64,000 nucleotides of DNA from Methanotrichaceae archaeon (GCA_963748825.1 CAVVKN010000006.1:32001-96000); one strand, 5' to 3'; counted from the stretch's first letter, positions 1 through 19,251 are shown. The notes: a model not told the origin generated them from the sequence alone. Numbers and translations are program-made.

Positions 1-257
1 AGGTTCGTCACGGACTTTCCGTTCTCCGTTTCCGAACCATATCTCGCTCCGACAACCAGAACAAAAATGTCAGCCTGTTCTTTGACGCACGCTAGGCAGT
101 TTCCAATCGCACCAAGATTTGGGTTAACGGGAAATGATGAAGATTCGGACAAGATCGGTAGCATGCCAATTGATTCGATGAACAATTTAAGATCCTTACG
201 TACCTGTGCAAGATCGAAACATGTAGAACTCACAAAGACCGAAGGGGCAATTGACAT
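1..257 (-). CDS. DUF4062 (TIR/NDT-like fold) domain protein, N-terminal part; runs off the window edge
   Basis: Not in the ORF track. Manual translation from ATG at 257: MSIAPSVFVSSTCFDLAQVRKDL...CVKEQADIFVLVVGARYGS...GKSVTNL, matching the DUF4062 VFVSSTxxDL and DIFVLxxGxRYGS motifs. Confidence 0.85.
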   Translation of the reverse strand, partial: MSIAPSVFVSSTCFDLAQVRKDLKLFIESIGMLPILSESSSFPVNPNLGAIGNCLACVKEQADIFVLVVGARYGSETENGKSVTN

Positions 258-392
258 TATCCGTTGAATCCGCTCAAAGCAGAAGAATCTTGCGGAAAGT
301 GACGGTCTTGAGTACGGGGATCTCACCAACAACACGTTATCTCATATTAAGAATCCACATCTATTGGCTATTTAGTGCTTCGGAGAATAAAT

Positions 393-760
393 CAACAGGG
401 ATCGAGCAACTTATCGAACCCAGCCATCTCATACACCTCCTTCGATGGTTCGGCCTGGCCCGCAGATAAATTGTCGCATGATCCTCATTCGCGGTCCCAC
501 TTTACCAGGCCTCGTTTCCTGGAGTCAAGCCATCTCGGCAGCCTCTTGATCTGCCTGGGCGGGATATGGCCCTGATCTCTGCCATCGAAGACATATCCTG
601 CGTCCCGGCCCTGAAGATGGGCATCCAGAGCCTTTAGGATAGGTTTTGGAAGGATTGAGTTGCGCTATTTCCACCCTTGCCGTTCATAATGTGCAAGTAT
701 ACTCTGGAGCCGCCAAGGTGTTCCACCTTAAATGCATCCACCACCTACTGCCCGTGACAC
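393..760 (-). pseudogene. Degraded small tyrosine recombinase/integrase, relic 1 (middle and C-terminal parts)
   Basis: Frameshifted minus-strand pieces: VEHL...YLHIMNGKGG / RNSILPKPILKALDAHLQGRDAGYVFDGRDQGHIPPRQIKRL / LQETRPGKV / ATIYLRARPNHRR (catalytic Tyr region). The HxLRH segment is deleted. Confidence 0.8.
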
Positions 761-768
761 TTCAGATG

Positions 769-844
769 ATTTCCCTAAAAAGTCTACAAATTCCCTGTTT
801 AACATCTTATAATTATAAGGGGAAATGTGTACTTTTTAGGAATT
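769..844. repeat. Imperfect palindrome/hairpin family, copy 1
   Basis: CCTAAAAAGTCTACAAATTCCC-(AT-rich core containing CTTATAATTATAAG)-GGGAAATGTGTACTTTTTAGG; related copies at 3852, 6085 and 12733. Confidence 0.85.
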
Positions 845-1191
845 GTTTGTAACTCGGCGGAGAGATATATAAATTATATAATAAATTAAACTTATTTTAA
901 GACTAACATAATTGATTTGATGCTATACAATCATTTATTCTCACGAAGATATTATTTTTGGAGTGGATTCGTCAGTAGCAAGGTCAGACACTTGAAAAAA
1001 TGCGCCCCGCCATTTCATGACGGCGCATTTTTCCTTCGTGTCCTCCTTCCCCCATTCTTTCCCTGAAGAAAAGATGATATTGGCTCGTAACACCGCCTTT
1101 AATCACGAATTTAGTCCCAGGACATGGAAATGTACCACTGCCCGGAATTTCCCTGTTTTTGGAGGAATTAAGAGGTCTGTGGCGTGTCTAA

Positions 1192-1247
1192 AGAAGGCAC
1201 AATATCCTTCTCTTCGCAGGCAACTAAACGCGGGGCCGCGGTGGAGT
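1192..1247. repeat. Conserved non-coding motif, copy A (copy B at 6771-6827)
   Basis: AGAAGG...TTCG(C/T)AGG(C/A)AACTAAACGCGGGGC(C/A)GCGG(T/C)GGAGT shared between the two sites. Confidence 0.75.
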
Positions 1248-1330
1248 CCCCCCAGTGCATGGCGAGAACACCAGGTAAATTAGGATGCCAAAAAATGAAT
1301 AGAGGAGTTGCAGATTACCCTTAATGAATA

Positions 1331-1354
1331 GAACTGGGATTTCTATCCCAGTTC
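1331..1354. terminator. Hairpin just downstream of the 1364-2845 gene
   Basis: GAACTGGGAT-TTCT-ATCCCAGTTC, a perfect 10-bp stem 10 nt past the stop codon. Confidence 0.5.
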
Positions 1355-1363
1355 TTTCTTCTC

Positions 1364-2845
1364 CTATTCCTTCGGATCGAACTTTATCGCTCTGTCGTAC
1401 ACGATCTCGGAATATGATGGCCCGGTCTTTGTAGCCTTTTCCAGGTACATCCTCCAGAAAATCATAAGAGGCTGATCCAGAGCTATGCCGTAGGCTCCAG
1501 GACCTGTGGGAATCTCAAAGCAGTGAGGATCGCCTTCGCAATTCCTTGCGAACTTATAGACGTAGAGGTATTTCGCGTTGGGATTATCAGGGAGGTACTC
1601 CTTTGCAGTCCCGTTGAAATCCAAGTCGGTGACCATTCCGACTCCATTAAACACGTCTGCCCCGTTCGGGACAATGTTCTGATACGTCGCTTTTCCTGTT
1701 GCTACATGGTTAATCCCGTAGACGATGATGAATTCATTGGTATCGTTTCCTAAGGTGACTGGCGGATTTCGTAAGAAGTCGTAGTAAAGCGAAAGATTGG
1801 GGAAGCGAGGTGTCAGCGACGAAGCAGTTTGGTTTCCCGTCCATAAATAGAGGCAATCGTTATTAGGACCTATGGCATCGATTCCTCTTTGAATAGCATC
1901 GCTGCCGACAGGTACTGCTATGCTAGTCGGAAGCTCCGTGGCATTTAATCCTTTGTATTTGTTGAGAATAGCCTCCCGCAACTCTTCTACGTCATCCATG
2001 AGGTCGAACTCTGTTGTTCCTGTTCCGCGAACTCTCAACTCTGGCATATCATACGGATCTAGTTCTGCAGATTCATTGGGTGTAAGCCGGAAAACAATCG
2101 CAGGAGTGTCATTGATATAATCATTGCCAATCTGCATATCTTTAAAGAGAGCGGGACGAATATACATGCCAAATGTATCGGAATTGTTCTCCAACCCTAG
2201 ATTCAGTATAGCCGAGGGAAGCACTTGGGTGTTGATTATGCCCTCAGAGTATCCCGCTGATTGGGCAGCAGCGCGAATGCGTTGATCGATTGCTTTATCG
2301 GATGTGGTAATCACCAAGGTGGTCTGATTGAAAGGATTTCCGGGCTGCCCATCAGGTGTCCCTTCGGTTTTGATAACCATGTTATTGACAGTGTCGGCTA
2401 CATTGGCAAAAAGCCATCGTGTCTCATTTCCATATGTCCTATCCATCAAATTAAGATCGTAACTAAAGTATCTGCACGCTGGTGGCGTTCGCCCTACGAA
2501 AACAATAGCTTCATCTGGACGAAGACTATAGTATGTAGTAGCATTGCCACTCTTTCCAAGCATTCTCGCTACCGTTGAAGATCTCTTGTCCAGCTTATGC
2601 CCAGGTGCAGGCGGTATAAAATATGCCAAGTATCTTGTGGCGGGATTGTTTCCATATGTAGATGGCAAAAATCCTTTATTATACAGCTTAATTAGATCAA
2701 AGCATCCAAGCTCACCTTGTTGGACGGTAAATCCATCCTGCTCCAAGGTTTGCTTGAACGCCTCTACGTCACCTATGTCCGCGTTCACAGCGAGTCCTGT
2801 TCCAATAGAAATAGCGAACAAGACTAGCAATATATACATTTTCAT
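1364..2845 (-). CDS. Secreted hypothetical protein (493 aa)
   Basis: Long ORF, N-terminal signal peptide MKMYILLVLFAISIGTGLA, GGAG RBS upstream. Confidence 0.8.
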   Translation of the reverse strand: MKMYILLVLFAISIGTGLAVNADIGDVEAFKQTLEQDGFTVQQGELGCFDLIKLYNKGFLPSTYGNNPATRYLAYFIPPAPGHKLDKRSSTVARMLGKSGNATTYYSLRPDEAIVFVGRTPPACRYFSYDLNLMDRTYGNETRWLFANVADTVNNMVIKTEGTPDGQPGNPFNQTTLVITTSDKAIDQRIRAAAQSAGYSEGIINTQVLPSAILNLGLENNSDTFGMYIRPALFKDMQIGNDYINDTPAIVFRLTPNESAELDPYDMPELRVRGTGTTEFDLMDDVEELREAILNKYKGLNATELPTSIAVPVGSDAIQRGIDAIGPNNDCLYLWTGNQTASSLTPRFPNLSLYYDFLRNPPVTLGNDTNEFIIVYGINHVATGKATYQNIVPNGADVFNGVGMVTDLDFNGTAKEYLPDNPNAKYLYVYKFARNCEGDPHCFEIPTGPGAYGIALDQPLMIFWRMYLEKATKTGPSYSEIVYDRAIKFDPKE

Positions 2846-3151
2846 ATTAAATTCTCCTTACTAACATTATCAATATTATCTTATTAAAACATTGAGGTCT
2901 TATCTGAACCCACATTGCGAGATCACAAGTCTAATGTTTGCTCAGCCTCTCAGCTTTGTGTCGCGCCATCCAACATGGCGAGAACTACGGATCGGCATAC
3001 TAAGGCAATGTTGCGTCGGTTAAGCTATACCTCTAAAGATGAGGGCAGCCAAGGCACAATTCTACCTTACAATGGGCATACTATCGAACCGGTATGGAAA
3101 GCCTCATGAATTAAAACAGTAGTAATAGTCATCATAAAAAAGGCGATAATC

Positions 3152-3514
3152 ATGAAGTTAATCAAAGTAGACCAAGTAGCTAAAGAGCCATGGGCAGATA
3201 AATTATTTACCGGTCCAGTCACCTTGCAGGCGATTATTGGAAATGACCTGAGTGAAAGCTTCCTGATACAACAAGTAAACTTTAGCAAGGGTGTAAGGAA
3301 CAAATTTCACAGCCACTCTACCGAACAAATACTCATTGTCACGGAAGGCGAAGGTATCGTCGCCACGGATAAAGAAGAAGTAACCGTCAGACCTGGGGAT
3401 GTCATATTCATTCCGGCGGGGGAGAAACACTGGCATGGTGCAGCTAAAGATTGCACCTTCTCGCATATTTATGTCATGTCACCAGATCTGAAAATAACTC
3501 AAATTGAGGATTAA
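3152..3514 (+). CDS. Cupin domain protein
   Basis: HSHSTEQILIVTEGEG and PGDVIFIPAGEKHWHGA cupin motifs. Confidence 0.9.
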   Translation: MKLIKVDQVAKEPWADKLFTGPVTLQAIIGNDLSESFLIQQVNFSKGVRNKFHSHSTEQILIVTEGEGIVATDKEEVTVRPGDVIFIPAGEKHWHGAAKDCTFSHIYVMSPDLKITQIED

Positions 3515-3529
3515 GATATTCGCCAACAA

Positions 3530-3744
3530 GTTCTACCTGGAATCCTTGTCTGCTGCAACCATTCAGTAACCTCTGGATCTGCCTGGTGGGCCATCCAGGC
3601 GTTCACTTTCAGCGGCAACCTCTGAGACACGCAGCCCAGCTCCTCCGAGGAGCCATAGAAGTGCGGCCTCCCTGGGGGATTGAACAGCCTTTAACATGCT
3701 ATGCCATTCTTCCAGGCAGAGGAATTATTCTCGGCACTGGGCAT
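3530..3744 (-). pseudogene. Degraded small tyrosine recombinase/integrase, relic 2 (N-terminal part)
   Basis: ATG at 3744, then EEWHSMLKAVQSPREAALLWLLGGAGLRVSEVAA..ERLD (catalytic Arg motif GLRVSE), then a deletion to PTRQIQRLL. DNA is similar to 525-565. Confidence 0.8.
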
Positions 3745-3851
3745 GTCGCGACTTTAGATTATGATTTAGATCGCCCTTCTGCCTCTGTTATGTAGGCGAT
3801 TTTATACCACGACTATTGATCATTCTTAGACCGCCACTGACACTTCATTGG

Positions 3852-3927
3852 ATTTCCTCAAAAAGTCTACAAATCCCCTGTATATATCTTATAATTATAA
3901 GGGGGAATGTGTACTTTTTTAGGATTT
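3852..3927. repeat. Hairpin family, copy 2
   Basis: TTTCCTCAAAAAGTCTACAAATCCCC...CTTATAATTATAAG...GGGGAATGTGTACTTTTTTAGGA; preceded by TGACACTTCA, as is copy 1. Confidence 0.85.
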
Positions 3928-4022
3928 CTCGGTATGTGAATCCCGGCATCCGATCACCATGATGATCCGGCACTATGCCTGAGGAGGTGCACTGAATTCA
4001 CAGACAAGAGGCATATATGCAG

Positions 4023-4334
4023 TCAAGTCGGACGATTTTCTTGAACAAAATCTTTGACAATTGTATATTTTCCAGAGAATCCTCTCGCTTGGATTTCGCT
4101 ATAGATTCGAGTGGCTGTCAACGAACCACTTTTAAGACGCTGGATGATGTATTCCTTGTGGGCATCCAGCTTGCTTGGCTTCGCGGAACGCTTTTTTGAT
4201 ACGGGCGGATCTTTAGCTTCTACATACTTGCTTACGGTCTTACGACAGTAGCCTAATTGCCGGGCGATTTCACTTTTGCTCAATCCTTGCTTATGCAACT
4301 CCTTCAAAGTATGGAAATCGTCTAAGTTCAGCAT
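4023..4334 (-). pseudogene. IS21-family IstA transposase, N-terminal HTH fragment
   Basis: GLSKSEIARQLGYCRKTVSKY...SKLDAHKEYI...GFSGKYTIVKDFV is the IstA N-terminus; truncated at 103 aa. Confidence 0.8.
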
Positions 4335-4489
4335 TGGTTCGACCTTCTATATTCAATATTAATTATGATCTCATGATGTCCGATTATAGCAGGATAAAAG
4401 TACTCAAGCTATATAGATATAACGTTGAAAAATAGAGCCTAAAATATTTCAGGACTATGCATCCAGTAAGCGTAGTGCCAGATATGTAA

Positions 4490-6027
4490 CCTTAACTCCG
4501 CGATTTAGGGCTTAAATTTGATATTATTTTAAATTTTTAACCTCTTGTAAATTATTTCAATGGAAATCTATAAATATATGTATTCCCTAATATACCATAC
4601 ATGGACGAATGGGCAAAATTATGGCTGATTGAACAAAGAAAAATGGGAAAGAAAGGACTAGAAATTAAATATATAAGTAACCATCATTATGTCTATCATT
4701 CAACGACACACTGGGATAAGCAACTCAAAAAACGAATAAAAGATTCCGATTATATCGGCAAGCTGGATCGCACTAAAGGGCTTATTGAGGGAGTTAAGCG
4801 ATCGGTAACCGCGAAAAATCTTCGAGGCATAAAAGAGTATGGTAACGCAATGCTATTTGACCGTATTCTTACCGATATGAGGTCATGCCTTGAGGATGCT
4901 TTCAAAGATGAGTGGGAAGAAATCTATGCTCTAGCGATAACGCGAGCATCTGGCTATATGCCATTGAAACGAGTTCATTCTGCCTGGGATAAAATATATA
5001 ATGTTCAAAAGATAAATCCAAATTTGGATGCAAAGAACTTAAGCCATGTGTTGAAAGCTGTTGGAATAGACAGTCAAGCACAGGATTCCGTTTTTAGAGC
5101 CCTATCTGAAAAGGACAAAGATCTCGTGTATGATTTGAGCACTGTGTTGACCAAGTCATCAATAAATTTTGCAGAGTTTGGCTATAACAAGAACAAGATC
5201 CACATTCCTCAAATAAATATCGCGCTGTTTTGCTCTCTGGAGACAGGCTTGCCCACTTTGATTAGAACGATACCAGGAAGCGTTCGCGACATAAAGAGTC
5301 TCTATAACAGCATCGTTGAAGCCAATAAAGAAGGATCGACGATCATATTGGATAGAGGTTTCTTTTCGAAGGATGCCATTAAATTCCTGCTAGAAAAGAA
5401 AATGAGCTTCATTTTGCCTGCCAGAAGAAACAGTCTACTTTATGGGACAGATATAAGTCTGAATAATCACCTATTTTATCAGGATAGATTGATAAAATGC
5501 GGAAAAGGAAAAATTGAGGACATTTTTCTTTATTTATACGAAGACCAACAATTAATGCTTGAAGAAAACATCACGCTCTATCAAAAACTAGACGAGGGAA
5601 AAATCGACGCCAATAAACTTAGTGAGGCGCAGAAGCGTGCTGGAAAGATCCTGATAGTGTCTAATCTCGATTTAGACGAGAATACTATATTTATGCAATA
5701 TAAAAGTAGAGACCGAATCGAGAAGCTTTTCGATACCTACAAAAATGCTCTTCAAGCAGACATTCTCTATTTGCAGGATAATGAAAGTGTCTTCGGGCAT
5801 ATTTTTATCTCGTTTTTATCATTATATGCATACACAAAGATTGAGGTGGCTCTGAAAAAAGCTGACCTTTTAAGAAAGCAATCTCCAAAAGACATCCTGC
5901 TTGATCTGAGCAAGGTGTACTTAGTAGAATTAAATGACTGCAATATAATTTCAGAGATACCTAGAAAATTAGAGACGCTTGACGCAAAATTAGGATTTAA
6001 TTTATTCCCTAAAAACCGGAGTTAAGG
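4490..6027 (+). mobile_element. IS1634-family insertion sequence, complete
   Basis: IRs CCTTAACTCCG...TTTAGGG at both ends; 6-bp TSD ATGTAA (4484-4489 and 6028-6033). Confidence 0.9.
4601..6025 (+). CDS. IS1634-family DDE transposase
   Basis: YDLST, FGYNK, ILDRGFFS and YKSRDRIEKLF motifs. Confidence 0.9.
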   Translation: MDEWAKLWLIEQRKMGKKGLEIKYISNHHYVYHSTTHWDKQLKKRIKDSDYIGKLDRTKGLIEGVKRSVTAKNLRGIKEYGNAMLFDRILTDMRSCLEDAFKDEWEEIYALAITRASGYMPLKRVHSAWDKIYNVQKINPNLDAKNLSHVLKAVGIDSQAQDSVFRALSEKDKDLVYDLSTVLTKSSINFAEFGYNKNKIHIPQINIALFCSLETGLPTLIRTIPGSVRDIKSLYNSIVEANKEGSTIILDRGFFSKDAIKFLLEKKMSFILPARRNSLLYGTDISLNNHLFYQDRLIKCGKGKIEDIFLYLYEDQQLMLEENITLYQKLDEGKIDANKLSEAQKRAGKILIVSNLDLDENTIFMQYKSRDRIEKLFDTYKNALQADILYLQDNESVFGHIFISFLSLYAYTKIEVALKKADLLRKQSPKDILLDLSKVYLVELNDCNIISEIPRKLETLDAKLGFNLFPKNRS

Positions 6028-6084
6028 ATGTAAAACTCTCTTAAAACAGTTGGTTGTGGTTTTTAGATCAGGTGATCATCGGAG

Positions 6085-6134
6085 CGTTCTACGCAAAAAG
6101 TCCACCTAAAGGTGGAGACTTTTTACTCCGAACG
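6085..6134. repeat. Hairpin family, short-loop variant
   Basis: CGTTC TACGC AAAAAGTC CACC TAAA GGTG GA GACTTTTT ACTCC GAACG; same AAAAAGTC.AC / ACTTTTT arms as the longer copies. Confidence 0.65.
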
Positions 6135-6770
6135 TCCTCGATCTCTCCCTCTCTGTCTGTCCAAAGATGATATTACTTGAAGTCCCTTCTTCAGTTGCCC
6201 CACAAGCCCAATTTCAGACCCGAAATTAAGCCTGCCCCCAAACCCAATTAAGACCTCTGAGGAGTGCCTAAAAGGGGTGTTTAAAGCCGGATCTCCATCC
6301 TGACGGGTAAATATCTGTAGCCAACAAAATACCCCGGATTTTTGCAGTACATGCATTCTACCTATGCGCATAACAATTGTTATTAAAGGTTATTTAAAGC
6401 TCCTCCGCCATCAGAACAAAAGAAATCCAGCCAATCAAATACTTTATCGACTCGGTACCAGCCATTAATTTTTGGACTTCAAGACCAACTTCAGGTAACT
6501 TATCGTTCACTCAATAAGGGGGAAAGGACAAGAGCAGGAGGAGATCGCCGCTCACCTTAGTGTGCGACGCATCGGGGGATGCTCTGTCCCATGACCCAAA
6601 ATTTTGCCCATTGCCTTGATAATATTGTACCTCTTCCAGATCTCACGCCCCTGTACATAATCCAAATTAAAGCCTAGTGAAATATTATTTAAATTATAAT
6701 AAATACTCTAATTAAAGTGTGGTGACTGCTCACATGTACTTATGTGTATATATGTTTGCAGTGGATCTAC

Positions 6771-6827
6771 AGAAGGTGCTACATCATTTTCTTTCGTAGG
6801 AAACTAAACGCGGGGCAGCGGCGGAGT
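6771..6827. repeat. Conserved non-coding motif, copy B
   Basis: Aligns with 1192-1247; lies just beyond the iteron-like array. Confidence 0.75.
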
Positions 6828-6881
6828 TTTTGCATCCGCTTGCCGGTGTGCAAAACGTAGCCGCGTCACAACTTTTTAAAT

Positions 6882-7017
6882 TGTCAGCAAAGTATCCAAA
6901 GTATCCTTCGTCGCCAAAGTCCCCATTGTCACTTCGCCCGATATAATATATTGAGAAGGAATTTATTCGACATTGGGGACATTGGATACGTTGGCTACGT
7001 TGGATACGTTGGTGACA
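6882..7017. repeat. Inverted arrays of 9-bp repeats around an AT-rich spacer; putative replication origin
   Basis: Left 6882-6930: TGTCAGCAA AGTATCCAA AGTATCCTT CGTCGCCAA AGTCCCCAT. Right 6969-7017, reverse complement: TGTCACCAA CGTATCCAA CGTAGCCAA CGTATCCAA TGTCCCCAA. 38-bp spacer containing ATATAATATATT. Confidence 0.75.
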
Positions 7018-8317
7018 CCTCCTGGGCAAGGAGGAATACGTATAATGTGTCTCTCCCTTTGCCTTCTCTGTTAAGGATCTTGGTTTCGACAGTACCGCTT
7101 TCCACCATTGTGCTTAGGAATTCGCTGAAATCGCCGCTCTTTATTTTTATATTGCGCATAATTTCCCGTTTAGTAGCCTTGCCATTATGATTCTTCAGGT
7201 ACATTATTATCCTGTCAATAACATTCTTTTCTGCATTGGAACCAACCAAATCATAGATCGCCCTTGCCGTGAACATAAGGTAATCATCAACTATCCTGCA
7301 TGCCTCTTGAACGAACTCCAGCCTAATCGGACTGGACACATCAAAGTCAGGAGATCCCAGCTCGAATAGCATTCCAAGCTTTGTCACAGTTGGCGCAAGC
7401 CTGCTATAGATCTGCATACAGAAGCCGTCATTGCTGGCAGTCCACTGCTCTTCCCTTGCACGTTGCCAATCAGTGTAGTATTCTGCGGCTTCTGTGCTGA
7501 AATGCATGGCAGTACACTCTTTGAGATCTTGCATTTTACGGGTAATACCGGAGAGCTGACCATACACCCCTTCCTCAAGAATACTAATTTGTGCCGTGCC
7601 TTCTTCAAGAGGTAACCATTTCGGCTTTTTACCTTGTGGGAAGAAGAACAGGAATCTTGCAAGGAATCCCGATAAAGTATCATTCTGTTCTGTATTTGCT
7701 CCGAGACTCGCATCAGTTGTCGCAAAAAACAAATTCAGATACGGATCATCAACCCTAAATTCTGTCTTTGCATTCTTCCTCTGACTGGTTCTCAATTTCC
7801 TGAAAAATGGCTTGGAGTCATAAAGCTGCATCAGGCTATCCTTAAAGCCGCGCATATAGTCCTTTTTCATGAGGCTTAAAACACCAGATGCTTCATCCCT
7901 TATCCAGGGTGCATGGTTGTAGTCACTCATATGCTCCGTAAATGCCTCTGGACTGAATTCAGTTGGAACAAGAGCAGGCAAGAGATGTGGCAATACCTGA
8001 CACAACATAGATTCCGCCTTATCAACTGCGGTGCTCTTCCGGGACAGGCTTGATTTACCACACAAAAATATATAAAAATTAGGATAAATCGTGCCTTGTC
8101 TCAGGACCACCTTGATTTTCTTATCAGCCGCCACCGCAAGAGCAAAAAGCCCTCCTGCGAACCAGTAATCAGGGAATGCATCACTGAGATCCGAACCACA
8201 TGCCATAAACCGTTGAATAAAATGGTCCGAAGGCAGTTTACATTCAAATTTCGGTCCCTCTGACAGCGAATAGGCTTCAAGTTCTTCCTCCGAGATCTCA
8301 TCAGATTGCACCTCCAT
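6995..8317 (-). CDS. DUF3987/YfjI-like AAA+ replication (helicase-type) protein of an integrated element
   Basis: YPNFYIFLCGKSSLSRKST (Walker A-like), FSPEAF, RDEASG (Walker B), SGFLARF, C-terminal wHTH. Confidence 0.8.
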   Translation of the reverse strand: MEVQSDEISEEELEAYSLSEGPKFECKLPSDHFIQRFMACGSDLSDAFPDYWFAGGLFALAVAADKKIKVVLRQGTIYPNFYIFLCGKSSLSRKSTAVDKAESMLCQVLPHLLPALVPTEFSPEAFTEHMSDYNHAPWIRDEASGVLSLMKKDYMRGFKDSLMQLYDSKPFFRKLRTSQRKNAKTEFRVDDPYLNLFFATTDASLGANTEQNDTLSGFLARFLFFFPQGKKPKWLPLEEGTAQISILEEGVYGQLSGITRKMQDLKECTAMHFSTEAAEYYTDWQRAREEQWTASNDGFCMQIYSRLAPTVTKLGMLFELGSPDFDVSSPIRLEFVQEACRIVDDYLMFTARAIYDLVGSNAEKNVIDRIIMYLKNHNGKATKREIMRNIKIKSGDFSEFLSTMVESGTVETKILNREGKGRDTLYVFLLAQEVSPTYPT

Positions 8318-8459
8318 CTCAAACCGCCCCTGTTGTCAAGAAATGTTCACAATTAAACACAATATTATACATATTAATAGTTCCAACTAAATACCTATTT
8401 TTATTTATTTTTACGTTTTTTATATTTTGACTAAAATTCATTTTTAATACCTCATAAAT

Positions 8460-8765
8460 CTAGTTCGTTAGATCCGAACTAGTATTTTTATTCTTTTTTG
8501 ATAAATATTTCATTGCTAATGATTGGCAACCTTGATGCATCAACCCATTTTCAGTTTCAACAACAGGATCACACTTACAAAATCCATCCCCGCAACATGC
8601 ACAAATCTTGGTTCGAGAGCATGGATCGCATTTATCGCAAAAGATACTCTCTTGTTTATGCATGCAACTACTGCAAGGGTTACAATCGGCACAATTTAAA
8701 AACATATAGTATATATTTTTAGTAGAACTCAATTTTGAGTTTTCTGTGTATTGATTATTATTCAT
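8460..8765 (-). CDS. Small Cys-rich protein
   Basis: GAGGT RBS; 13 Cys in CxxC/CxC clusters. Confidence 0.6.
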   Translation of the reverse strand: MNNNQYTENSKLSSTKNIYYMFLNCADCNPCSSCMHKQESIFCDKCDPCSRTKICACCGDGFCKCDPVVETENGLMHQGCQSLAMKYLSKKNKNTSSDLTN

Positions 8766-8850
8766 TTAATACCTCATTTAAAACTTTTCTTGCTTGACTA
8801 AAGTACTATTATATACAAATATAATACGATGCTAATATATAATATCCTCA

Positions 8851-9051
8851 TCATCGCTGATCATCTCCGAGAATTGGCTTTATTCCTATCGGTGAGATTA
8901 CCAGAATGTTGCTCTGCTCATCAAATTTCATCTCTACAGTCTCAACAGATGCCCAGGCATCCAAAACGGGTTTTGGCACAGACAGTGAGCCATATGTCCC
9001 ATTCTGTGTCCCTTTCCTTACCAACAACTTTCTTGAAAACCTCATATTCAT
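8851..9051 (-). CDS. AbrB/MazE-like swapped-hairpin DNA-binding protein
   Basis: MNMRFSRKLLVRKG...YGSLSVPKPVLDAW...VEMKFDEQSNILVISP; start taken at the ATG after the AAGGA RBS. Confidence 0.65.
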   Translation of the reverse strand: MNMRFSRKLLVRKGTQNGTYGSLSVPKPVLDAWASVETVEMKFDEQSNILVISPIGIKPILGDDQR

Positions 9052-9736
9052 TCCTTCTTTTTGAGAGAACACTCCCTCATAGTAGTGCTTGACGTAAAAT
9101 TGAGTTAATATTTCAGGAATAAAAAAAGGCAAATGTTCAATTATCCCCTCATCTTGATGGTGTTATAGTTGGACTGCCAAGAGCCAAGCATCAGCGGGAG
9201 TTTGATTATTGGTCATATGGGTTATTATCGCCATTATTTGGTATATTATATATTTTACTTCAGTGAGGTTAAAGATAAAAATAAGCCATATAGCCGATAT
9301 CATCATGGTCTGGCGATCTACTATCAGAGGCGAATACAACGATCTAACGATGACAACGATCTTTTTGCAGATTTCCTATCGCCGCATTTTCGCCCAACTT
9401 TCCACTTGGACCAATGATGATCAACTTCGAGAAGTTGCCTACTAAAAGTGCGCCATATAATTAAACCATAGTTTTTTGTTGTATAATGCTTATAGCTATT
9501 TATTTTGCTAAGTTTGATAGTAGTTGGACCTAACTGACCTCGCCTTTATCCAGTCTTTTTGAAGGCATTCCGTTAAATTGTGATTTATAATCAATATTAT
9601 ATATAAAAATCTCTTAAATTAAAAGAGTTTAAATTCAAAAAAGTCCTATTTAGAATAAAAATCTCAAAGGAGGATTTAAACAGATGAAAAGGATATTAGC
9701 TTTTGTGCTTATTGCCACTATAGGGGGTTTACAGAA

Positions 9737-9907
9737 ATGGCAGGCTTGATCGGTTTGGCTATAGCATTCTTCGTCCTCGCTCTCATAGCAGGAGCATTGG
9801 GGATGAGCGGAGTCGCGGGCATATCAATGAATATTGCCAAATGGCTGGTTATAATATTCATAATATTGGCGTTAGTAACGCTGGCGTTGATATCGTTTAT
9901 ACTGTAG
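9737..9907 (+). CDS. DUF1328 (UPF0391/YtjA-like) small membrane protein, 56 aa
   Basis: Below the ORF cutoff; [45 protein letters not shown]. Confidence 0.85.
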
Positions 9908-10148
9908 CAACCAGCAAAATTTTTTCGAGGAATAGAAAAATGTTTTGTTTCTGCTCAAATGTAATGGAGAAAATTGGCTAAATTCGCATCGCAAGCGCAA
10001 ATTCACATTGGAGGAATGCCGGAACCATCTCTTAGAATAAATTTATATATTGAGGATAACATTATACATGAATGCTCGGCACTTCTTCCATAGATGAAGG
10101 CTATTATGAGGCGATTGACTGTGTTGTAGGAAGCGAAGAGCTTACCTA

Positions 10149-10544
10149 ATGGTGGTGACGGAATCAATGATAAAATATGCTATAATGCTTGGAGTCTTTT
10201 TAGCTGTGCTCATATGTAATTGTGAAGCATCGGACGAAGCCGTGTTCTCGGACAACTTTGCAATGCCACCTATTAATCCCGCAGGGATCGTGCCTTGTGC
10301 AAATGCAGTAGCACCGATTCCATATGGGGTCGCAACTTTATATTGGGCGGAATTGATATCCCCTGGTGGTAAGAATTTATGGTTATATGTCAATGGTTGT
10401 TGGCGATCTTTATCTCAGCCAACTGATGCGATCCTAGCTTCTGTACAGGATGCGTTTAGTGATCCAGAACATTTTCAAGTGATTGCCTGGTATGAAAATA
10501 CCAAAATTATTGGCCTAGTAGTGAGATCTCCCATGACATGTTGA
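10149..10544 (+). CDS. Secreted hypothetical protein
   Basis: Signal-peptide-like N-terminus; TATA-like TTTATATA upstream. Confidence 0.6.
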   Translation: MVVTESMIKYAIMLGVFLAVLICNCEASDEAVFSDNFAMPPINPAGIVPCANAVAPIPYGVATLYWAELISPGGKNLWLYVNGCWRSLSQPTDAILASVQDAFSDPEHFQVIAWYENTKIIGLVVRSPMTC

Positions 10545-10934
10545 TAATTATGAGGTAGCCTACAAAGCGATGTGCTGTTGCATTTCAGCATATTTCAGCA
10601 GAATTCGGCAGATATCTGGATTGCCGATAAACATATCATAATATTGGTCAGATTCCTTCAAAAACGCATATTATTGGATATTCAGTGATTTAAGCAATGA
10701 GTGTGGAGAAACAGGGCGTTATAACCAATAGGAAATTGATTGAAATTCTATATCCCTGTAGGCTCTCTCCGAGATTCCATGCCGAAATAAATAACGAAGC
10801 CGATGCATATTGATTATTCGGCGAACAAGGATTATGCTTGAATCTGCGGGTATCGGATTCAAGGAATATGGGCGATATGGGTTATCCCTGCTATTATTCC
10901 TTCTATAATTTTAATTTCCTTAGATACGGTTAAT

Positions 10935-12662
10935 CCCACATTTCGCATTAACACTCCAATCCATAATATTTTTTGCAGTCCTGCCCGAGTAGCTTTAGGA
11001 CCAAGTCCTGAGTCTCGCTCAGCTTTATCAGCCGGCGAATCACATGTTGGCCCTCGGTTACTATTATTAATGTTACTCTCATAAAAAGCTGGAATATCCA
11101 TCTCATGGTCGGTTTTTGAGTCGGTTTTTTGAGTTGATTTGGGACACTCTGCCCAGCCTCCTTTAGTTTTCTTCGAAGCTTCCACTCTGCATACGAATAA
11201 ATCAATAGGCAAAGGACCATAATCATTGCCAAGGCCTCGATACGTTCTTCTTTCTTAAGAAAAAATTCTGATGCGTGGAAACTTTTGTCTTTCAAGAAGC
11301 GGAAGCCTCTCTCTACCGCTTGCTGCCCTTTGTAATAGTTCAGCATGGTTTCAGAATCTAGATCCAAGTCATTGCTCGCGAGTACGAACCTGCCCAATTT
11401 TTGGCGTTCTCGGATTACAGATTCTTGATCAATTTCGAGATCAGCTTCAATCGCATACTGATAAATTCGCGCTTCATCCTTCTTCGGCCTACCCCTCTTT
11501 TTTTCTGCACGCTCTAAAATAGAAGAGGCCACCAGGTCTTTAAGCTTGAAAAGAGGATGATCCGAAACCCATTTCTTTGCCGCGGCTATGGCATCTGGTT
11601 CACAAGCGTACCGTTGACGTTTCAGAGAATTGAGATCTTTCTGGGCATCACCCATCTTTTTTTGAAGGTTTTTATCAAAGGTCTTCTCCTTTTGCGCCTG
11701 CATCTCCTGGGACCAGAAAACCGCAGCTTTCTGAGGAATGCCTCCATAATTCAGATATGTAGTATGGAACGCATAGCGTGGATCCGTTGCAGGTGTCATT
11801 TCCAGTTCTGCTGAGATCAAAGCCTTTGCTGCCCCTACAGTTTCAGGAATACGAGTGATCCAATGTAGATCTTTTCCCAGTAGCTTGAGATTTTCTTCAG
11901 AATAAATAGCGCTATCTGCGACCCAATAATTTGAATCATCGAAGGAAATGGACTCTCTCAGTCTCTGGATCATCTCTGGCAAACTTTTTTTATCAGATTT
12001 GTTTCCGGAGAACGACTGCATAAAAAGAGGAACTCCATGTTGATTCACGACCATTCCCAGAACGAAACGCTTAAGGTCCATTCGGTTATCTTTGGCATGG
12101 CCAAAAGTAATTTTAATTGAATCTGTTCCATCTGGAGCATCACCTTCATACTTTCCAAACATCGAGAAGTTTGTCGTATCCACATGTAGTAGATGCGTTT
12201 CCTCGGTCATTTTGTTCATGACTTGCAGAGCAAGCTCGTTAAACAGCTCCGTTGGACCATAGTCAAAAATTGCATCTAATGTTCGCGATAATGTGTCATC
12301 ATTCAGGTTAGATGGCGAAATGCCTTCTCCCAATAAACTCTCGGTAGGAAGACCTATGAAAAAATTGGAGTAAAAATAGAGACGAGATTCATTAAAACCC
12401 AGGCCATTCAGGGCCATTGCCTTTATAATTGCGGAATGACTGGCTTTATGATGTCTGGTTTTTGGGAGTGCGCGATCTATGACCTTACCTATACCAAGTT
12501 CATCAAAGATCCCTGCTACTATCCCAAAATGCTCGATGATATTTGTCGAGATATCCATGCCACTTCCCTTCATGGAAGCATATGGTTGAGCTATTAAAAA
12601 AGATTATCCATAAAAGTCAAGGGAAATTATGAAGTGTTCAAACCGTTAATGCGAAATGTGGG
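10935..12662 (-). mobile_element. IS1634-family insertion sequence, complete
   Basis: 18-bp IRs CCCACATTTCGCATTAAC; 6-bp TSD GTTAAT (10929-10934 and 12663-12668). Confidence 0.9.
10948..12573 (-). CDS. IS1634-family transposase
   Basis: HVDTT, FGHAKDNRMDLK, VADSAIYS and YKGQQAVERGFRFLK motifs. Confidence 0.92.
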   Translation of the reverse strand: MKGSGMDISTNIIEHFGIVAGIFDELGIGKVIDRALPKTRHHKASHSAIIKAMALNGLGFNESRLYFYSNFFIGLPTESLLGEGISPSNLNDDTLSRTLDAIFDYGPTELFNELALQVMNKMTEETHLLHVDTTNFSMFGKYEGDAPDGTDSIKITFGHAKDNRMDLKRFVLGMVVNQHGVPLFMQSFSGNKSDKKSLPEMIQRLRESISFDDSNYWVADSAIYSEENLKLLGKDLHWITRIPETVGAAKALISAELEMTPATDPRYAFHTTYLNYGGIPQKAAVFWSQEMQAQKEKTFDKNLQKKMGDAQKDLNSLKRQRYACEPDAIAAAKKWVSDHPLFKLKDLVASSILERAEKKRGRPKKDEARIYQYAIEADLEIDQESVIRERQKLGRFVLASNDLDLDSETMLNYYKGQQAVERGFRFLKDKSFHASEFFLKKEERIEALAMIMVLCLLIYSYAEWKLRRKLKEAGQSVPNQLKKPTQKPTMRWIFQLFMRVTLIIVTEGQHVIRRLIKLSETQDLVLKLLGQDCKKYYGLEC

Positions 12663-12732
12663 GTTAATGGAAATAATGACCCATATGAGCCAGATTTGCT
12701 GATAAAGCTGCTAAAACCCATGTCTTAGTATA

Positions 12733-12804
12733 ATTCCGCAAAAAGTCTACATTTTCCCTATATTTAACTATATAATAGGGGAATTGTATACTTTTTTAGG
12801 AAAT
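12733..12804. repeat. Hairpin family, copy 3
   Basis: ATTCCGCAAAAAGTCTACATTTTCCC...GGGGAATTGTATACTTTTTTAGGAAAT. Confidence 0.8.
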
Positions 12805-12888
12805 CGTCCAGAGTAGGTTATATCACTTCTCTTTCAAGCTCTTGCGTCCCATTTCTGTCAGAAAAACCTTTGAGATGGCATTGGGAAG

Positions 12889-14536
12889 GGCACAATCTAG
12901 AAATCCAGTGATATAGTGAAGGCAGGATACATCCACCCGAAAATATTTTAATCTTCAAGCGAAATGTACCCTGTGTGACCCTTCAATGACACAAATACAG
13001 CTTACCATGAAAAACTTTCCCTTCGTCGAACAGTTGAAAGCGATTTTCGAGGGATATTCGGACGATTACGAGTACACTTCGAATGGAATCTTCCGCAAAA
13101 TTAAACCACAATTATGTACTGATTGCGGGACTCCCATGAACCATAATGGCTTCAATAATCATACCAAGAGGCTACTCGGCGATGTTAAGATAGGCAAATA
13201 TCTGTGTCCCAATTGCAGCAAAAATATTGAGGAAGAACATGGGTTTTGGGAGAACGCTACGAGCGCATTTTTCGGATTATTTGGCGGTCTTTGTCAGCTC
13301 CTGAGGGTTAATCATGTCTCCCTGGAGGTAATCGAGAAAGTATCAAACTACATCTATCCGCGCAGCAAGGACACCATTTGCACGATGATCAAATCTGCGA
13401 CAGACAATATGGTGGTTCCCAATATCGAAGATGTTCAATTTGTTCACTATGATGAGCAACATCCCAAGACAGGTAGAAGTCAGAAATACCGACTAACTCT
13501 CCTCGATTATAGGACGAAACAAGTGATTGCAGATGAGTTATTCGACTCAAAAGATGGGGCAACCATCGAGGATTTCCTTCGAAGAAACCTCGACGTACAT
13601 AAACCTATATTTATAGTGACGGATCTTTATAGAGGCTATGATGAAATATTCAGGAAAATTTTTGGAAATCGAGTGGCCCATCAATTCTGTTTGTTTCATC
13701 AGGACAAGCTCATAGTCAATGATTTTCCGAAAAAGACAACAATCGAAGAAGAACTATTGAAATATAGAATATTAAATATATTTTATAATAGGACCGCAGA
13801 AATGCAATGGCTTTCATGTCTGATTGAAGAAGAGCAAGAGATGAAAAAACGAGGCGAAAAGACATACAAGGAATGGCTAGAAGAAGCACAGAAATGGTTT
13901 AAAAAGTTTGTTTATGGTTTGGAGAAGGAACGAAGAAGAAATCATAGGAATATGGAGACAAGAAGTTTATATGATGCTAAGAAAAATTTGGATGAATTAA
14001 TGAATGAAATAGGTGTATTTAAGATTATAATTCAAAAAAGATTAAAGCAAATCGAGAAGGATTGGCAACATCTTATGATCTTCCAATTATTCGATGGCGC
14101 TCCTGCAACCAATAATCCACTAGAAAATTATTATTCTTGTAGCTTGAAGACTCATAGAAAACAACAGCTAGAAGTCCCTGGAATCGAAGAACAAATGAAG
14201 CTTTCTCGTCTAAAAAGATGGGGAATGTTTGGAATACCACAAAAGACCTTGATCGAAGCATTCTTTGTCTTCATTCCTTTCATGGACTGGAAATGAAGGT
14301 TAGTTTATTTATATTATATTTTGTAAAAAAAACTTCTAGCTAAGGCTGCCGTCGGAAGTTAAAATTTTTAAAAATTATTTTTTAAAGTTAAGCTATTATT
14401 TAGAGAATACTATGATGTAGACACAACAATTTTAGTATGTGAGACAAAATTATACCAAACTTTGGTGGCAATAGGAAGATGTGTGCGATCATGGTATTGG
14501 AAAAGTTGAAAAATCACTCGATTTCTAGAAAGTGCC
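12889..14536 (+). mobile_element. ISNCY/ISM1-like insertion sequence
   Basis: IRs GGCAC..TCTAGAAATC.AGTGAT; 8-bp TSD TTGGGAAG (12881-12888 and 14537-14544). Family assignment is tentative. Confidence 0.8.
12986..14296 (+). CDS. DDE transposase (ISM1/ISNCY-like)
   Basis: Zn ribbon CxxC...CxxC, HYDEQ, VTDL, HQFCLFH, TNNPLENYY. Confidence 0.85.
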   Translation: MTQIQLTMKNFPFVEQLKAIFEGYSDDYEYTSNGIFRKIKPQLCTDCGTPMNHNGFNNHTKRLLGDVKIGKYLCPNCSKNIEEEHGFWENATSAFFGLFGGLCQLLRVNHVSLEVIEKVSNYIYPRSKDTICTMIKSATDNMVVPNIEDVQFVHYDEQHPKTGRSQKYRLTLLDYRTKQVIADELFDSKDGATIEDFLRRNLDVHKPIFIVTDLYRGYDEIFRKIFGNRVAHQFCLFHQDKLIVNDFPKKTTIEEELLKYRILNIFYNRTAEMQWLSCLIEEEQEMKKRGEKTYKEWLEEAQKWFKKFVYGLEKERRRNHRNMETRSLYDAKKNLDELMNEIGVFKIIIQKRLKQIEKDWQHLMIFQLFDGAPATNNPLENYYSCSLKTHRKQQLEVPGIEEQMKLSRLKRWGMFGIPQKTLIEAFFVFIPFMDWK

Positions 14537-15046
14537 TTGGGAAGTGATAAACTCGATGGATAATCGCTGATCATAATGTCTACGTGCCCCGACTTCTTTA
14601 AGAGCTTCAGACGAGTTCCAAGTTCGGTTGCATCAAGCTTAAGGATCTCATTAACCTTGACAGGACTGATAGAGATCTTCGGGGACAGCTCATTGATCGC
14701 GTTAAGAATCGTTATATCCGTATCGTCCATAAATCTTACCAGATAATATATGCATCTAATAAGATTTATAGTGTTGCCCTGGTATAATGCGAGAGCTTCC
14801 TCCTAAATCGCGATGAGAAACTTCGTGAATAGGTTACTCAGTTTTAAGATTAGCACAAGATAACAAGAAAATTGGATGCATAAAGAAAAAGGCGACTCAC
14901 TGTTTCACAATTTCTTTATTCAGAACGAATCACATTAAATCCTAAACTATTGACCTAACGAAAAATATTTAATTGAGTACACGATATGTATAAGTAGACC
15001 TCGCACAGTTCCGTATACATCTTACGGAACAATTGAGGGGTACTTA

Positions 15047-15328
15047 ATGGATGCAGAATTCATTCTGACTCTAGCGTCACAGTCATGGTTGAAATGGTTC
15101 AGTTGCCCGCATTGTGGCAGTGATTGTCCTACATCTAAAAATGGTCGCTGTACTGAATGCGATGAGCAATTGGTACTTGTAAAAAATCAAGCGGCTGGAA
15201 ACTATGATCTTAATGGTTTTTCAGGAAAATTGAATTCTCTAATTCCTCTGCAAACGGGATCGTCTTATTATTACCATAACCAGTGGAATCGATTAGTTAA
15301 CCCGATCATAGAAATAGATAATTCGTGA
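15047..15328 (+). CDS. Small Zn-ribbon protein (paralog at 54110-54391)
   Basis: CPHC...CTEC; GAGGGG RBS; conserved paralog within the window. Confidence 0.75.
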   Translation: MDAEFILTLASQSWLKWFSCPHCGSDCPTSKNGRCTECDEQLVLVKNQAAGNYDLNGFSGKLNSLIPLQTGSSYYYHNQWNRLVNPIIEIDNS

Positions 15329-15411
15329 ATTAGATGAGGAAATCATCCGTATCCGGCTATTACATCCTCACAATTCAGAGAGTTGGGAATTGATCCGCTT
15401 GAAATCACCTA

Positions 15412-16730
15412 GTACAGCTGGGCTTAAATAAGCCTAATTTTAGGCAGCAAGTGCTCTCCCTCGATATGTCCATTTGAACGGCTTTGCCATTGTTTGGTTG
15501 AAGTACTCGACAAACGCCAAAACCTTTGCTTTCAAATCATTGATGGAAGCAAAGGAGGCTCGCCTGAGCAGCTTCCGGACTAAGATGCTAAACCATATTT
15601 CAACTTGGTTCATCCAAGAAGCGTGTATCGGCGTGTAGTGAAAGACGATAGAGTGGGATGGATCGGTCAAGAATGATTCACGAGTCTCGATCGACTGCAA
15701 AACACCGCTTTTGCCTTTGATTCCTAAGTCTATGTCCAACTCGGATATATCGGCCACATACCTCACGAGGGATTCTGATTTATGGATATTGAGGTTGTCA
15801 GCGACAAAGTGCCAGCGGGATGCGGATAAAGAGCTTTCAACCACCTCCTTGATATGCGATACGAAGTCATCTTCATTGCGCGTATCGCCGCAAGAAATGG
15901 TGTCAATCCGTCCGCTGGCTACCGCAAAGCTCACGATGAATGATTGAGTTCCATGCCTGACGTACTCAAACTCTCTTCGTTCCACTTTTCCTGGTGCCAT
16001 TGGCAATCCAGGGTGTTTGCGTTCGAGAGCTTGAACCCCCGTCATTTCATCGATGCTCATTACAACTTCACCTTTTTGAGCTAAATTCTGGGCTTGTTGG
16101 TACAATGAATTGATGTCGTCTACCTTTTCGTCAAACCGTTCGTCCGGCGCAGGTGTTAGCCAGTAGCGAATCAAGTGTGGTTGGAGACCCTTTTTTTTAA
16201 AATCCTGGCAGAATGACGAGCTGAAATCGTATCTACAATGCCCCGCTTCATTATTTCAGCTGCAATCTCACGGCTTGTCCATTGGCTAATTGGACGTCCA
16301 GATTCAGCAGGTTTCTCACAAGCCAGCTGTTGGATCTGACAAATCTGGTTTGCAGTTAAACGAGGTGGTGCTCCGGGTCTTGGCAGGTCATCCAAGCGTT
16401 CTTCAACACTCAGATCGTCCAAAGAAATCGGCTGCAAGTCCAGCCATCGTTGCCGCCATAATCGAGCAGTGTCCAAGGACACATCTAATTCATTAGCGAT
16501 TTCGCGATTATTTTTGCCAATCGCAGCCAGCAAAACAATCCGTGCTCGGATAACTTTTTGCTGCCCTGTAGTATACCGACGAACAAGCAATTCCAACTCT
16601 TGGCGCTCGACGTCGGTTAAGTTGATTGCTGATGGTTTCGGACCCGGCATTGATACTCCCCTGTTGCAGAGTATCTATCAATGATTATATATAAAACATT
16701 ATTGTTTGGTTTATATCAGCCCAGCTGTAC
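15412..16730 (-). mobile_element. IS630-family insertion sequence, complete
   Basis: IRs GTACAGCTGGGCT; TA duplication within CTAG; orfA and orfB joined at an A8 run. Confidence 0.9.
15440..16650 (-). CDS. IS630 transposase (orfA 16171-16650 plus orfB 15440-16174, frameshifted)
   Basis: HTH orfA (RPGAP) and DDE orfB ([15 protein letters not shown]); slippery TTTTAAAAAAAAG junction. Confidence 0.9.
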
Positions 16731-19058: not shown

Positions 19059-19251
19059 TTCCCTCCCACCCAATTCTATATGATCAGTACTTTATATAAG
19101 AATCTTTTGTCTGTAATAATTTAATACTAATTCAACAATTAAATTTATCAAAATATATGCAGTTTATCGTTATCGTTTTAACTTTAAGAATATAAAAAAT
19201 CAATTCTATCTATTAATTATAATAGTAAATCTTTTGATATGTTATGACTAA

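Follow-up and report, generated by a model that had tools for sequence, protein, structure and literature searches.

What are the palindromes at the left end of a 64,000-nt stretch of DNA from a Methanotrichaceae archaeon (G000:C6:32001-96000; hereafter the window, with positions counted from its first base), and what do they have to do with the remnants of integrase genes beside two of them? An earlier interpretation made from the nucleotides alone (the sequence-only reading) proposed that several related integrative elements, each with a mini tyrosine integrase and one with a DUF3987 replicon, had inserted head to tail at these hairpins and then decayed, leaving their cargo genes behind like cassettes. 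The hairpins prove to be genuine, and three of the four belong to a family of palindromic repeats confined to Methanothrix-type archaea. This family has a counterpart within genes for helicase-primase proteins, which offers a different view of its origin from that of an integrase attachment (att) site.

A palindromic repeat family

Four related palindromes had been listed, at 769, 3852, 6085, and 12733. Three of them (placed here at 771, 3854, and 12734) are mutually alike and align as one family under a covariance model built from nine copies in the genome (scores in Table 1), but the fourth does not belong with them: the hairpin at 6085-6125 is real, has one 14-nt outer-arm word in common with the family, and was unmatched by the model even at E<=1 in a search of the whole genome. 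BLAST and the covariance model together gave 11 loci in this genome, nine of them strong (64-99 bits) and two weak (37-41 bits), and matches were found in 12 of 59 genomes of the genus, mostly at one to three loci each, this genome being the richest. A pattern made from the outer arms matched this genome seven times, compared with 0, 0, 1, 0, and 0 times in five shuffles. One pattern scan of metagenome contigs picked out 49 stretches, and the covariance model gave 179 matches (both strands counted) in genus genomes and metagenome contigs, reducing to 81 loci and 67 distinct sequences. Copies are 75-88% identical and number 1-11 per genome. At 10 of the 11 loci in this genome, the palindrome lies in DNA of below-average guanine-plus-cytosine (GC) content (mean 0.438 vs 0.507; 4% of random windows are lower). 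A public Methanosaeta/Methanothrix contig carries the same two hairpins as contig C24 of genome G044, a pattern scan of viral contigs for the palindrome gave 0 matches, and among the papers listed in a search of the literature on Methanosaeta palindromic repeats, none described such repeats.

The consensus reads GAATTCC-nn-AAAAAGTCTACAAATCCCCT-(AT-rich, 15-25 nt)-AGGGGAAATGTGTACTTTTT-nn-GGAATTC, in a unit of about 85-100 bp. Each palindrome comprises two inverted 20-nt half-sites of the AAAAAGTCTACAAATCCCCT type around an AT-rich, TATA-like center, with outer arms of the GAATTCC type; two small internal mismatches in most copies give it a polarity, and the A5...T5 runs are the most invariant columns of the alignment. 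Most copies are discrete units of about 100 bp with unrelated flanks on both sides, and they occur in both orientations, sometimes back to back. Neither isolated half-sites nor a longer or parent element with the same ends was found in this genome, and no target-site duplications were seen beyond the self-complementary GAATTC-type outer arm. A structured RNA was considered and rejected, as the palindrome shows no covariation, on 9 rows or on 123 distinct rows, and has no Rfam match. Its arms are conserved as sequence, with 95.6% of cells pairing compared with 95.4% in column shuffles, and because of this conservation and the lack of covariation, a protein site or recent copying is favored over an RNA.

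Two contigs carry clusters of hairpins. In L050 (6899-7134), two back-to-back hairpins about 150 bp apart lie downstream of two very large ORFs (open reading frames) of 962 and 683 aa, which we suspect from their sequence to be BREX-type defense genes. The 2698-bp metagenome contig L091 carries four hairpins within 1.3 kb, two of which abut (315-398 and 399-490).

Palindromes within helicase-primase genes

Some matches to the palindrome model fall within long ORFs. Two of these ORFs, of 862 and 863 aa, are complete and have DEAD and AEP primase domains by Pfam, and two more, of 589 and 700 aa on shorter contigs, have the AEP domain only. In nine metagenome contigs, a pair of hairpins 710-875 bp apart brackets one gene or domain, and in five of the nine, the pair encloses the AEP primase domain of a helicase-primase. 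The upstream hairpin of the pair is in frame within the ORF and falls in the linker that joins helicase to primase; the peptide that it encodes aligns across helicase-primase homologs. Of 58 other genomes of the genus, five encode such homologs (32-38% identity); none was found in this genome.

An AT-rich-centered palindrome is present at the aligned linker position in all 10 helicase-primase ORFs examined. Its arms differ between subfamilies, both arms having changed together. In an internal-control scan of each gene, no other 90-nt stretch of DNA was as stable as the one at the palindrome in 7 of the 10 ORFs. The family model detects the other helicase-primase subfamilies weakly (17.7-34.7 bits). 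To judge from these sequences, the in-gene palindrome is ancestral to the helicase-primase family and has diverged with it, with no late insertion. The hairpins of the window are therefore seen as the dispersed form of one subfamily of an ancient, selected palindrome of an element-borne helicase-primase gene.

The neighbors of these helicase-primase genes encode ParA, ParE, or, 2 kb away, a 262-aa integrase. A helicase-primase query against plasmid and phage collections gave only distant primase-domain matches of less than 30% identity, with no phage match, and a search of the literature on the TOTE conflict system primase yielded no match.

Genomic contexts and homology boundaries

In this genome, most palindromes lie just beyond the 3′ ends of genes, and several lie between convergent genes. 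Among 70 contexts, in which ORFs were called only crudely, the genes ending within 150 bp of a hairpin numbered 48, and those starting within that distance numbered 28. Certain neighbors recur: genes for DUF2582 winged-helix proteins with a hairpin about 130 bp upstream (eight cases), a short gene (about 86 aa, no Pfam family) with the hairpin downstream (six cases), a CrtC/lipocalin-like gene (six cases), and an ORF whose 139-aa product appears, by eye, to be secreted (six cases).

Homology stops at the outer edge of the hairpin in three comparisons, namely those of the window with contig C5 of the same genome, with G074, and with G061. At the Lhr locus and at a methyltransferase gene of contig C12, the hairpin marks the exact point at which synteny with other genomes is lost, with no empty site available for comparison. 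An insertion is seen in G058 (L045:1196-2790), where 1.57 kb lie between convergent genes that are about 80 bp apart here (window 30854-30931). This insert holds a remnant of a winged-helix gene, a hairpin, and an ORF of 232 aa whose product looks secreted by eye; the hairpin is internal to the insert and not terminal.

Two kinds of gene were also noted near hairpins. Fragments of family-B DNA polymerase genes lie about 0.1-1.1 kb from hairpins at C5:13617-14117, C18:116222-116467, L032:102-410, and L090:1930-3876; Pfam identifies DNA_pol_B for the 648-aa ORF of L090 only, the remaining fragments having been recognized by eye. Extra copies of a gene for a small basic protein flank the mini-integrase module of G061 (L049:7955-8263 and 10909-11223), and the same gene is found near other hairpins (C5:10553-10849 and C18:118146-118487). 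Its product is putatively the chromatin protein MC1.

Integrase relics and mini-recombinases

The two minus-strand tyrosine integrase relics reported beside hairpins are borne out. Relic 1 (488-664, minus strand) is 69% identical over 42 aa to an intact 238-aa homolog (E 2e-21) and retains the part that follows box I, as far as the natural stop, and relic 2 (3563-3697, minus strand) matches at 58% identity over 40 aa that include box I, GLRVSEV (E 5e-5). Both have suffered frameshifts and deletions. The junction of relic 2 with the cupin gene is common to G074 (90% identity) and metagenome contig L123 (89%), with differing internal deletions. Because this junction is shared, relic 2 is an old, inherited pseudogene, and the notion of decay in place after a local insertion falls away.

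The intact homologs, of 238 aa in G008 and 181 aa in G061, consist of the catalytic domain only (PF00589, E 3e-32 and 5e-32). They come closest to archaeal XerA, matching its catalytic half at 132 bits (vs a cut-off of 220), and they score 85 and 65 bits against the integron-integrase model of NCBIfam (cut-off 265). In a class-wide sample of 201 genomes searched with L049:9456-10001 (minus strand), 32 of the 99 other genomes belonging to the same family had a mini-recombinase, and none of 101 genomes from the five other families did. The open frames are mostly 190-240 aa long. Therefore, a Methanotrichaceae-restricted, catalytic-domain-only family of Xer-like mini tyrosine recombinases does exist.

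The physical link between hairpin and integrase is weak. The window has two units of relic plus hairpin in direct orientation, 3083 bp apart, and in both, the hairpin lies about 10-100 bp upstream of the relic in the same orientation, as it does in G074 and L123; three of these four cases are one inherited locus. In G061, an intact 181-aa mini-integrase gene lies 1.1 kb from a hairpin, and in contig L097, a different, full-length integrase (303 aa) is encoded 570 bp from one. No hairpin was found at any of five other mini-integrase loci (two in G023 and one each in G008, G016, and G009), which were located by DNA similarity and searched with filters off at E<=1 within 1.5 kb, and in one case over a whole 10.6-kb contig. 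Mini-integrase similarity is present in 2 of 41 distinct metagenome hairpin contexts, many of them on short contigs. An integrase stands beside the hairpin at 2 of the 11 loci of this genome, in which three PF00589 matches lie far from any hairpin, and the intact mini-recombinase genes of G052, G063, G008, G066, and G074 lie on other contigs or hundreds of kilobases from hairpins. By genome, mini-recombinases occur in 6 of 10 hairpin-positive and 8 of 43 other members of the genus, a count that ignores kinship.

The expectation that hairpins regularly adjoin integrases thus fails, and so does the expectation that they accompany DUF3987 genes, as no hairpin lies within 1.5 kb of any of the four DUF3987 loci checked in other genomes. 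With regard to integron-type sites, the attC boxes R'' (RYYYAAC) and R' (GTTRRRY) are each found near the proper end in 1 of 64 copies, and both together in 0 of 64. The palindromes are probably not docking sites of the adjacent dead integrase genes.

A probable island at tRNA-Ser(TGA)

The GC content is 0.34-0.48 across positions 1-26000 of the window, compared with about 0.55 to the right of 26 kb, and the low-GC stretch starts about 5 kb to the left of the window. At the right-hand GC step, there is an intron-bearing tRNA gene (Rfam 43.7 bits), the sole match of an Rfam scan of 1-27000 at E<=1. It is tRNA-Ser(TGA) by the intron mode of ARAGORN and is absent from the plain ARAGORN listing. 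A direct copy of its last 15 nt (17/18) is found at window position -4685 (C6:27315-27332), 30.66 kb from the tRNA, where it coincides with the left GC drop (E 0.011 in 49 kb). This copy is the single distal one, since no others were found within the island at up to 5 mismatches in 24 nt, and no integrase ORF was found at either island end. The region thus shows the features by which a tRNA island is recognized, a distal direct repeat of the tRNA 3′ end and GC steps at both ends. We read the low-GC region as a single island, some 30.7 kb long, inserted at tRNA-Ser(TGA) of a Methanothrix/Methanosaeta genome, and the tRNA gene and the C6:27315 copy are likely the att pair of the whole island. 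This is also the sole att-like direct repeat found, and it bounds the island once, which lends no support to a head-to-tail array. A 12-mer, GTGASACTTCAG, occurs at the distal tRNA-repeat junction (C6:27323) and in the flank of the first hairpin (C6:32754) and nowhere else in the genome; it was dropped as evidence, as chance would yield about 0.7 occurrences and one was seen in the reversed control.

The region studied is the left third of this island, which is a graveyard of mobile-element parts. The island contains a pair of defunct genes for Xer-like mini-recombinases, part of a primase-helicase gene (its middle), small accessory genes, and at least eight DDE-transposase genes of the insertion sequence (IS) type, of several Pfam families and spread throughout 1-26000. 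The stretch at 12733-21195 is paralogous to C5:21436-23784 (L001:17436-19784), the window copy being split by four extra insertion sequences (IS66-like, DDE_3, ISAzo13-like, and DDE_5) that are missing from the C5 copy.

As for the proposed DUF3987 replicon, the domain is confirmed (Pfam E 7.7e-20) but belongs only to a truncated gene fragment, which corresponds at 76% identity to residues 349-776 of a G072 protein 915 aa long. The N-terminal extension of that protein was judged by eye to be a primase-polymerase, and homologous open frames are 797-954 aa long. The 9-mers at 6970-7005, described as an iteron-like array, are likewise real but are coding repeats of the frameshifted DUF3987 frame, reading as NV-type tripeptide repeats as in the full-length homolog (aa 777-816; a weak match, E 0.38, but collinear). 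An iteron-type origin was rejected, as the 9-mers continue the primase-helicase frame after the frameshift.

The conserved motif of about 57 bp reported in two copies was found again, 1213-1247 and 6793-6827 being 89% identical and about 62 nt being 81% identical. It is also present in G016, G051, and, in part, G063, has no Rfam match, and shows no covariation on four rows. In G016, it forms part of a small module beside tRNA-Ser(GCT) that consists of the 300-bp region of Table 1, the motif, cargo, and a mini-integrase, the first two making up its far end; in G061, the same module stands beside a hairpin and is without the motif. Neither a hairpin nor flanking direct repeats were found at the G016 module. 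Pieces of the 300-bp region adjoin the distal tRNA repeat of the island. The idea that several small elements contributed to the region thus survives in this recurring module, although hairpins are not a constant part of it, and nothing else supports so well a contribution of more than one such integrative element to the island.

Table 1. Features of the window (positions from its first base) and helicase-primase ORFs with a linker palindrome (contig coordinates)
Feature	Position	Strand	Basis or remark
DUF4062 gene, 5′ part	3-335	-	Pfam PF13271, E 4e-17; runs on left of window, in L005
Integrase relic 1	393-745	-	Box-I end to natural C-terminus; frameshifts, internal deletion, N-terminal ~85 codons absent
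Palindromic repeat copy 1 with conserved ~25-nt left flank	747-852 (repeat 762-852)	+	Covariance model, 87.6 bits
300-bp region, conserved non-coding block	843-1153		Also in G061 and G016; pieces at C6:27362-27798
Conserved motif copy 1, 3′ half degenerate	1187-1290		Sequence comparison
493-aa ORF with N-terminal hydrophobic stretch (secretion signal by eye)	1364-2845	-	No Pfam family; G044 DNA homolog, 72%
Cupin gene, 3′ end fused to truncated relic 2	3152-3514	+	Pfam Cupin_2, E 2.9e-14; orthologs in G074 and L123
Integrase relic 2	3515-3800	-	N-terminal part retained with box I; middle lost; C-terminal side truncated at cupin junction
Palindromic repeat copy 2 with left flank	3830-3935 (repeat 3845-3935)	+	Covariance model, 99.1 bits
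103-aa helix-turn-helix ORF (transposase/resolvase-type fragment)	4023-4334	-	Pfam HTH_7, HTH_29
Insertion sequence with 41-nt inverted ends; DDE_Tnp_1 transposase at 4601-6025	4490-6027	+	Pfam
Short A5/T5 hairpin outside the repeat family	6085-6125		No covariance-model match at E<=1
Conserved motif copy 2	6766-6870		Sequence comparison
Frameshifted primase-helicase continuation with 9-mer repeats (6970-7005)	6909-7022	-	tblastn, aa 777-816, E 0.38, collinear
DUF3987 ORF, aa 349-776 of 915-aa PrimPol-helicase	6995-8317	-	Pfam; primase domain and C-terminus missing
Small accessory ORFs: 101-aa Cys-rich (-), 93-aa (-), DUF1328 (+), 131-aa (+)	8460-10544		ORF calls, Pfam
IS1634-like insertion sequence, DUF4277 and DDE_Tnp_1, 23-nt inverted ends	10930-12667	-	Pfam
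Palindromic repeat copy 3, left edge of ~8-kb paralogy with C5:21436-23784	12725-12812	+	Covariance model, 90.7 bits
Small gene (~86 aa where intact, in its C5 paralog; no Pfam family), interrupted by IS66-like transposase gene at 12986-14296 (+)	12805-14730	-	
Intron-bearing tRNA-Ser(TGA), proximal island end	25978-26090	-	Rfam; ARAGORN intron mode
Helicase-primase ORF, ~860-980 aa	L081:761-3349	-	
Helicase-primase ORF, ~860-980 aa	L115:1952-4543	+	
Helicase-primase ORF, ~860-980 aa	L151:1742-4576	-	
Helicase-primase ORF, ~860-980 aa	L152:7235-10144	-	
Helicase-primase ORF, ~860-980 aa	L153:3073-6009	-	
Helicase-primase ORF, ~860-980 aa	L149:1150-4002	-	
Helicase-primase ORF, ~860-980 aa	L150:752-3598	-	

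Possible role of the palindrome

We tentatively favor, as an account that could nearly as well be right as wrong, an element-derived, protein-recognized palindrome that has spread as solo units and marks module boundaries. The palindrome would be a protein-recognized cis element of a Methanothrix lineage of plasmid-like or integrative elements, the most likely kind being a binding site of the replication protein and possibly an origin. One subfamily of it would then have spread as solo units into the intergenic DNA of accessory regions, where these units may act as module boundaries in two ways: a hairpin with A5/T5 runs on both strands is a candidate bidirectional stop signal, and a repeated sequence could serve as a foothold for recombination, because of which homology would break at palindrome edges. 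The palindromes of this genome are orphans, as no cognate helicase-primase gene was found and the adjacent integrases are pseudogenes.

Several points weigh against this account. The idea of a putative origin or replication-protein-binding site comes from the position and the conservation of the palindrome; AEP-TOTE, as Pfam calls the primase domain, suggests a conflict system and not a replicon; and the helicase-primase has no close relative in the plasmid and phage collections. Two other subfamilies have the in-gene palindrome only, with no solo copies in their genomes, and dispersal would for this reason be peculiar to one subfamily. The bias toward 3′ ends is modest (48 vs 28), and eight copies lie upstream of DUF2582 winged-helix genes, positions that would suit a promoter or operator role equally well. 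The att repeat of the island is short (E 0.011 in 49 kb), with no integrase at either end. In addition, two hairpins do lie some 10-100 bp upstream of integrase relics and one lies 1.1 kb from the intact gene of G061, and a role as a recombination site retains some probability.

In that role, the palindromes would be att- or attC-like sites of the mini Xer-like recombinases, the genes between them cassettes, and the window a decayed head-to-tail array. The hairpins upstream of the two relics and of their counterparts in G074 and L123, all in the same orientation, would fit this well, as would the recombinase genes near hairpins in G061 (181 aa) and L097 (303 aa), the bracketing of single genes by hairpin pairs, the breaks in homology at hairpin edges, and the co-occurrence by genome (6/10 vs 8/43, kinship ignored). 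However, the relics of the window, G074, and L123 go back to one inherited locus and are not independent cases, the five other mini-recombinase loci are without a hairpin within 1.5 kb, and intact genes lie far from hairpins in five genomes (G052, G063, G008, G066, and G074). Recombinase similarity in 2 of 41 metagenome contexts, the missing attC core boxes (0 of 64 copies with both), and copies in both orientations, some back to back, point the same way, so that we consider this explanation unlikely. A selfish miniature element of the MITE (miniature inverted-repeat transposable element) kind, whose transposase would be absent from this genome, appears to us just as doubtful. Such an element would explain discrete units of about 100 bp with unrelated flanks in most copies, a multi-copy, genus-restricted family with 75-88% identity, and even in-frame copies in a protein-coding gene, as Rickettsia palindromic elements also insert in frame into genes. 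The 1.57-kb hairpin-bearing segment of G058 at a site that is empty here might be taken as an instance of its movement, but the hairpin is internal to that segment. There are, moreover, no target-site duplications beyond the self-complementary outer arm and no isolated half-sites or longer element with the same ends in this genome, and an in-gene palindrome that is ancestral to the helicase-primase family and diverges with it is not expected of a mobile insertion.

The palindromes could also be purely transcriptional signals, either bidirectional terminators or operator/promoter sites for winged-helix proteins, kept by shared island ancestry. This explanation draws on the invariance of the A5...T5 runs, the TATA-like center, the copies between convergent genes, the excess of 3′ over 5′ ends (48 vs 28), and the eight copies about 130 bp upstream of DUF2582 genes. 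It is nevertheless very improbable in our judgment: termination has no need of 90 nt of conserved sequence, copies stand beside unrelated genes without flanking homology, and in-frame copies in a long ORF are hard to square with a terminator.

Comparison with known systems

REP/BIME (repetitive extragenic palindromic sequences and bacterial interspersed mosaic elements), ERIC (enterobacterial repetitive intergenic consensus), and Rickettsia palindromic elements are dispersed palindromic repeats of bacteria, and some Rickettsia copies are translated in frame. The Methanothrix family resembles them as a short, multi-copy, lineage-restricted palindrome that is mostly intergenic and near gene ends, and it resembles the Rickettsia elements further in that some copies are translated in frame. 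Unlike these bacterial repeats, it has an archaeal host, only 1-11 copies per genome, and a place in low-GC accessory DNA, and its in-gene copy is ancestral to the helicase-primase family.

The primase-helicase ORF904 of pRN1 is a plasmid replication protein with a nearby stem-loop origin. Here too, a primase and a helicase of a small element are combined with a strong, AT-rich-centered palindrome in or just after the gene. However, the order in the Methanothrix protein is helicase then primase, and the helicase is of the DEAD type and not of the D5 type. The palindrome, a putative origin at most, is within the coding frame, and the primase domain is named after a conflict system.

Integron attC sites, including those of CALINs (clusters of attC sites lacking integrases), are similar in being imperfect palindromes beside single accessory genes, in forming clusters without a nearby recombinase, and in the involvement of an Xer-related tyrosine recombinase (Ghaly et al., 2022; PMC9668308). 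In contrast, the Methanothrix palindromes are without the R''/R' core boxes (0 of 64 with both) and occur in both orientations, and the mini-recombinase, unlike IntI, has no N-terminal domain and scores 85 bits against the 265-bit integron-integrase cut-off. The main text of that study of archaeal integrons makes no mention of Methanosaeta, Methanothrix, or Methanosarcin* (PMC9668308). The island also resembles archaeal integrative elements that target tRNA genes, with its position at a tRNA 3′ end and its short direct repeat, and the G016 module similarly lies beside tRNA-Ser(GCT) (PMC8371274). Unlike those elements, the recombinases here are catalytic-domain-only proteins of about 190-240 aa, and none is encoded at an island end; the main text of the review concerned has no match for Methanosaeta, Methanothrix, or "hairpin" (PMC8371274).

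Implications for Methanothrix

The ordered array that the window appears to hold is mostly wreckage. A bolder extension, which we regard as improbable, would be a cassette-exchange system peculiar to the Methanotrichaceae, with palindromes of about 90 bp as working sites at which single genes or the primase domain are shuffled among islands, plasmid-like elements, and chromosomes by an Xer-like recombinase or a helicase-primase acting in trans. If true, this system would be an archaeal analogue of the integron of independent origin.

Much of the world's conversion of acetate to methane is done by Methanothrix, and to our knowledge, the mobile elements of this genus are almost undescribed. The Xer-like recombinases of about 200 aa constitute an uncharacterized minimal family of tyrosine recombinases. 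The in-gene palindrome, conserved in structure and variable in sequence, can be put to direct test as a candidate origin or site of protein binding in a family of archaeal elements that has not been studied. Finally, a genus-specific palindrome at the edges of accessory modules provides a handle for mapping gene exchange in Methanothrix.

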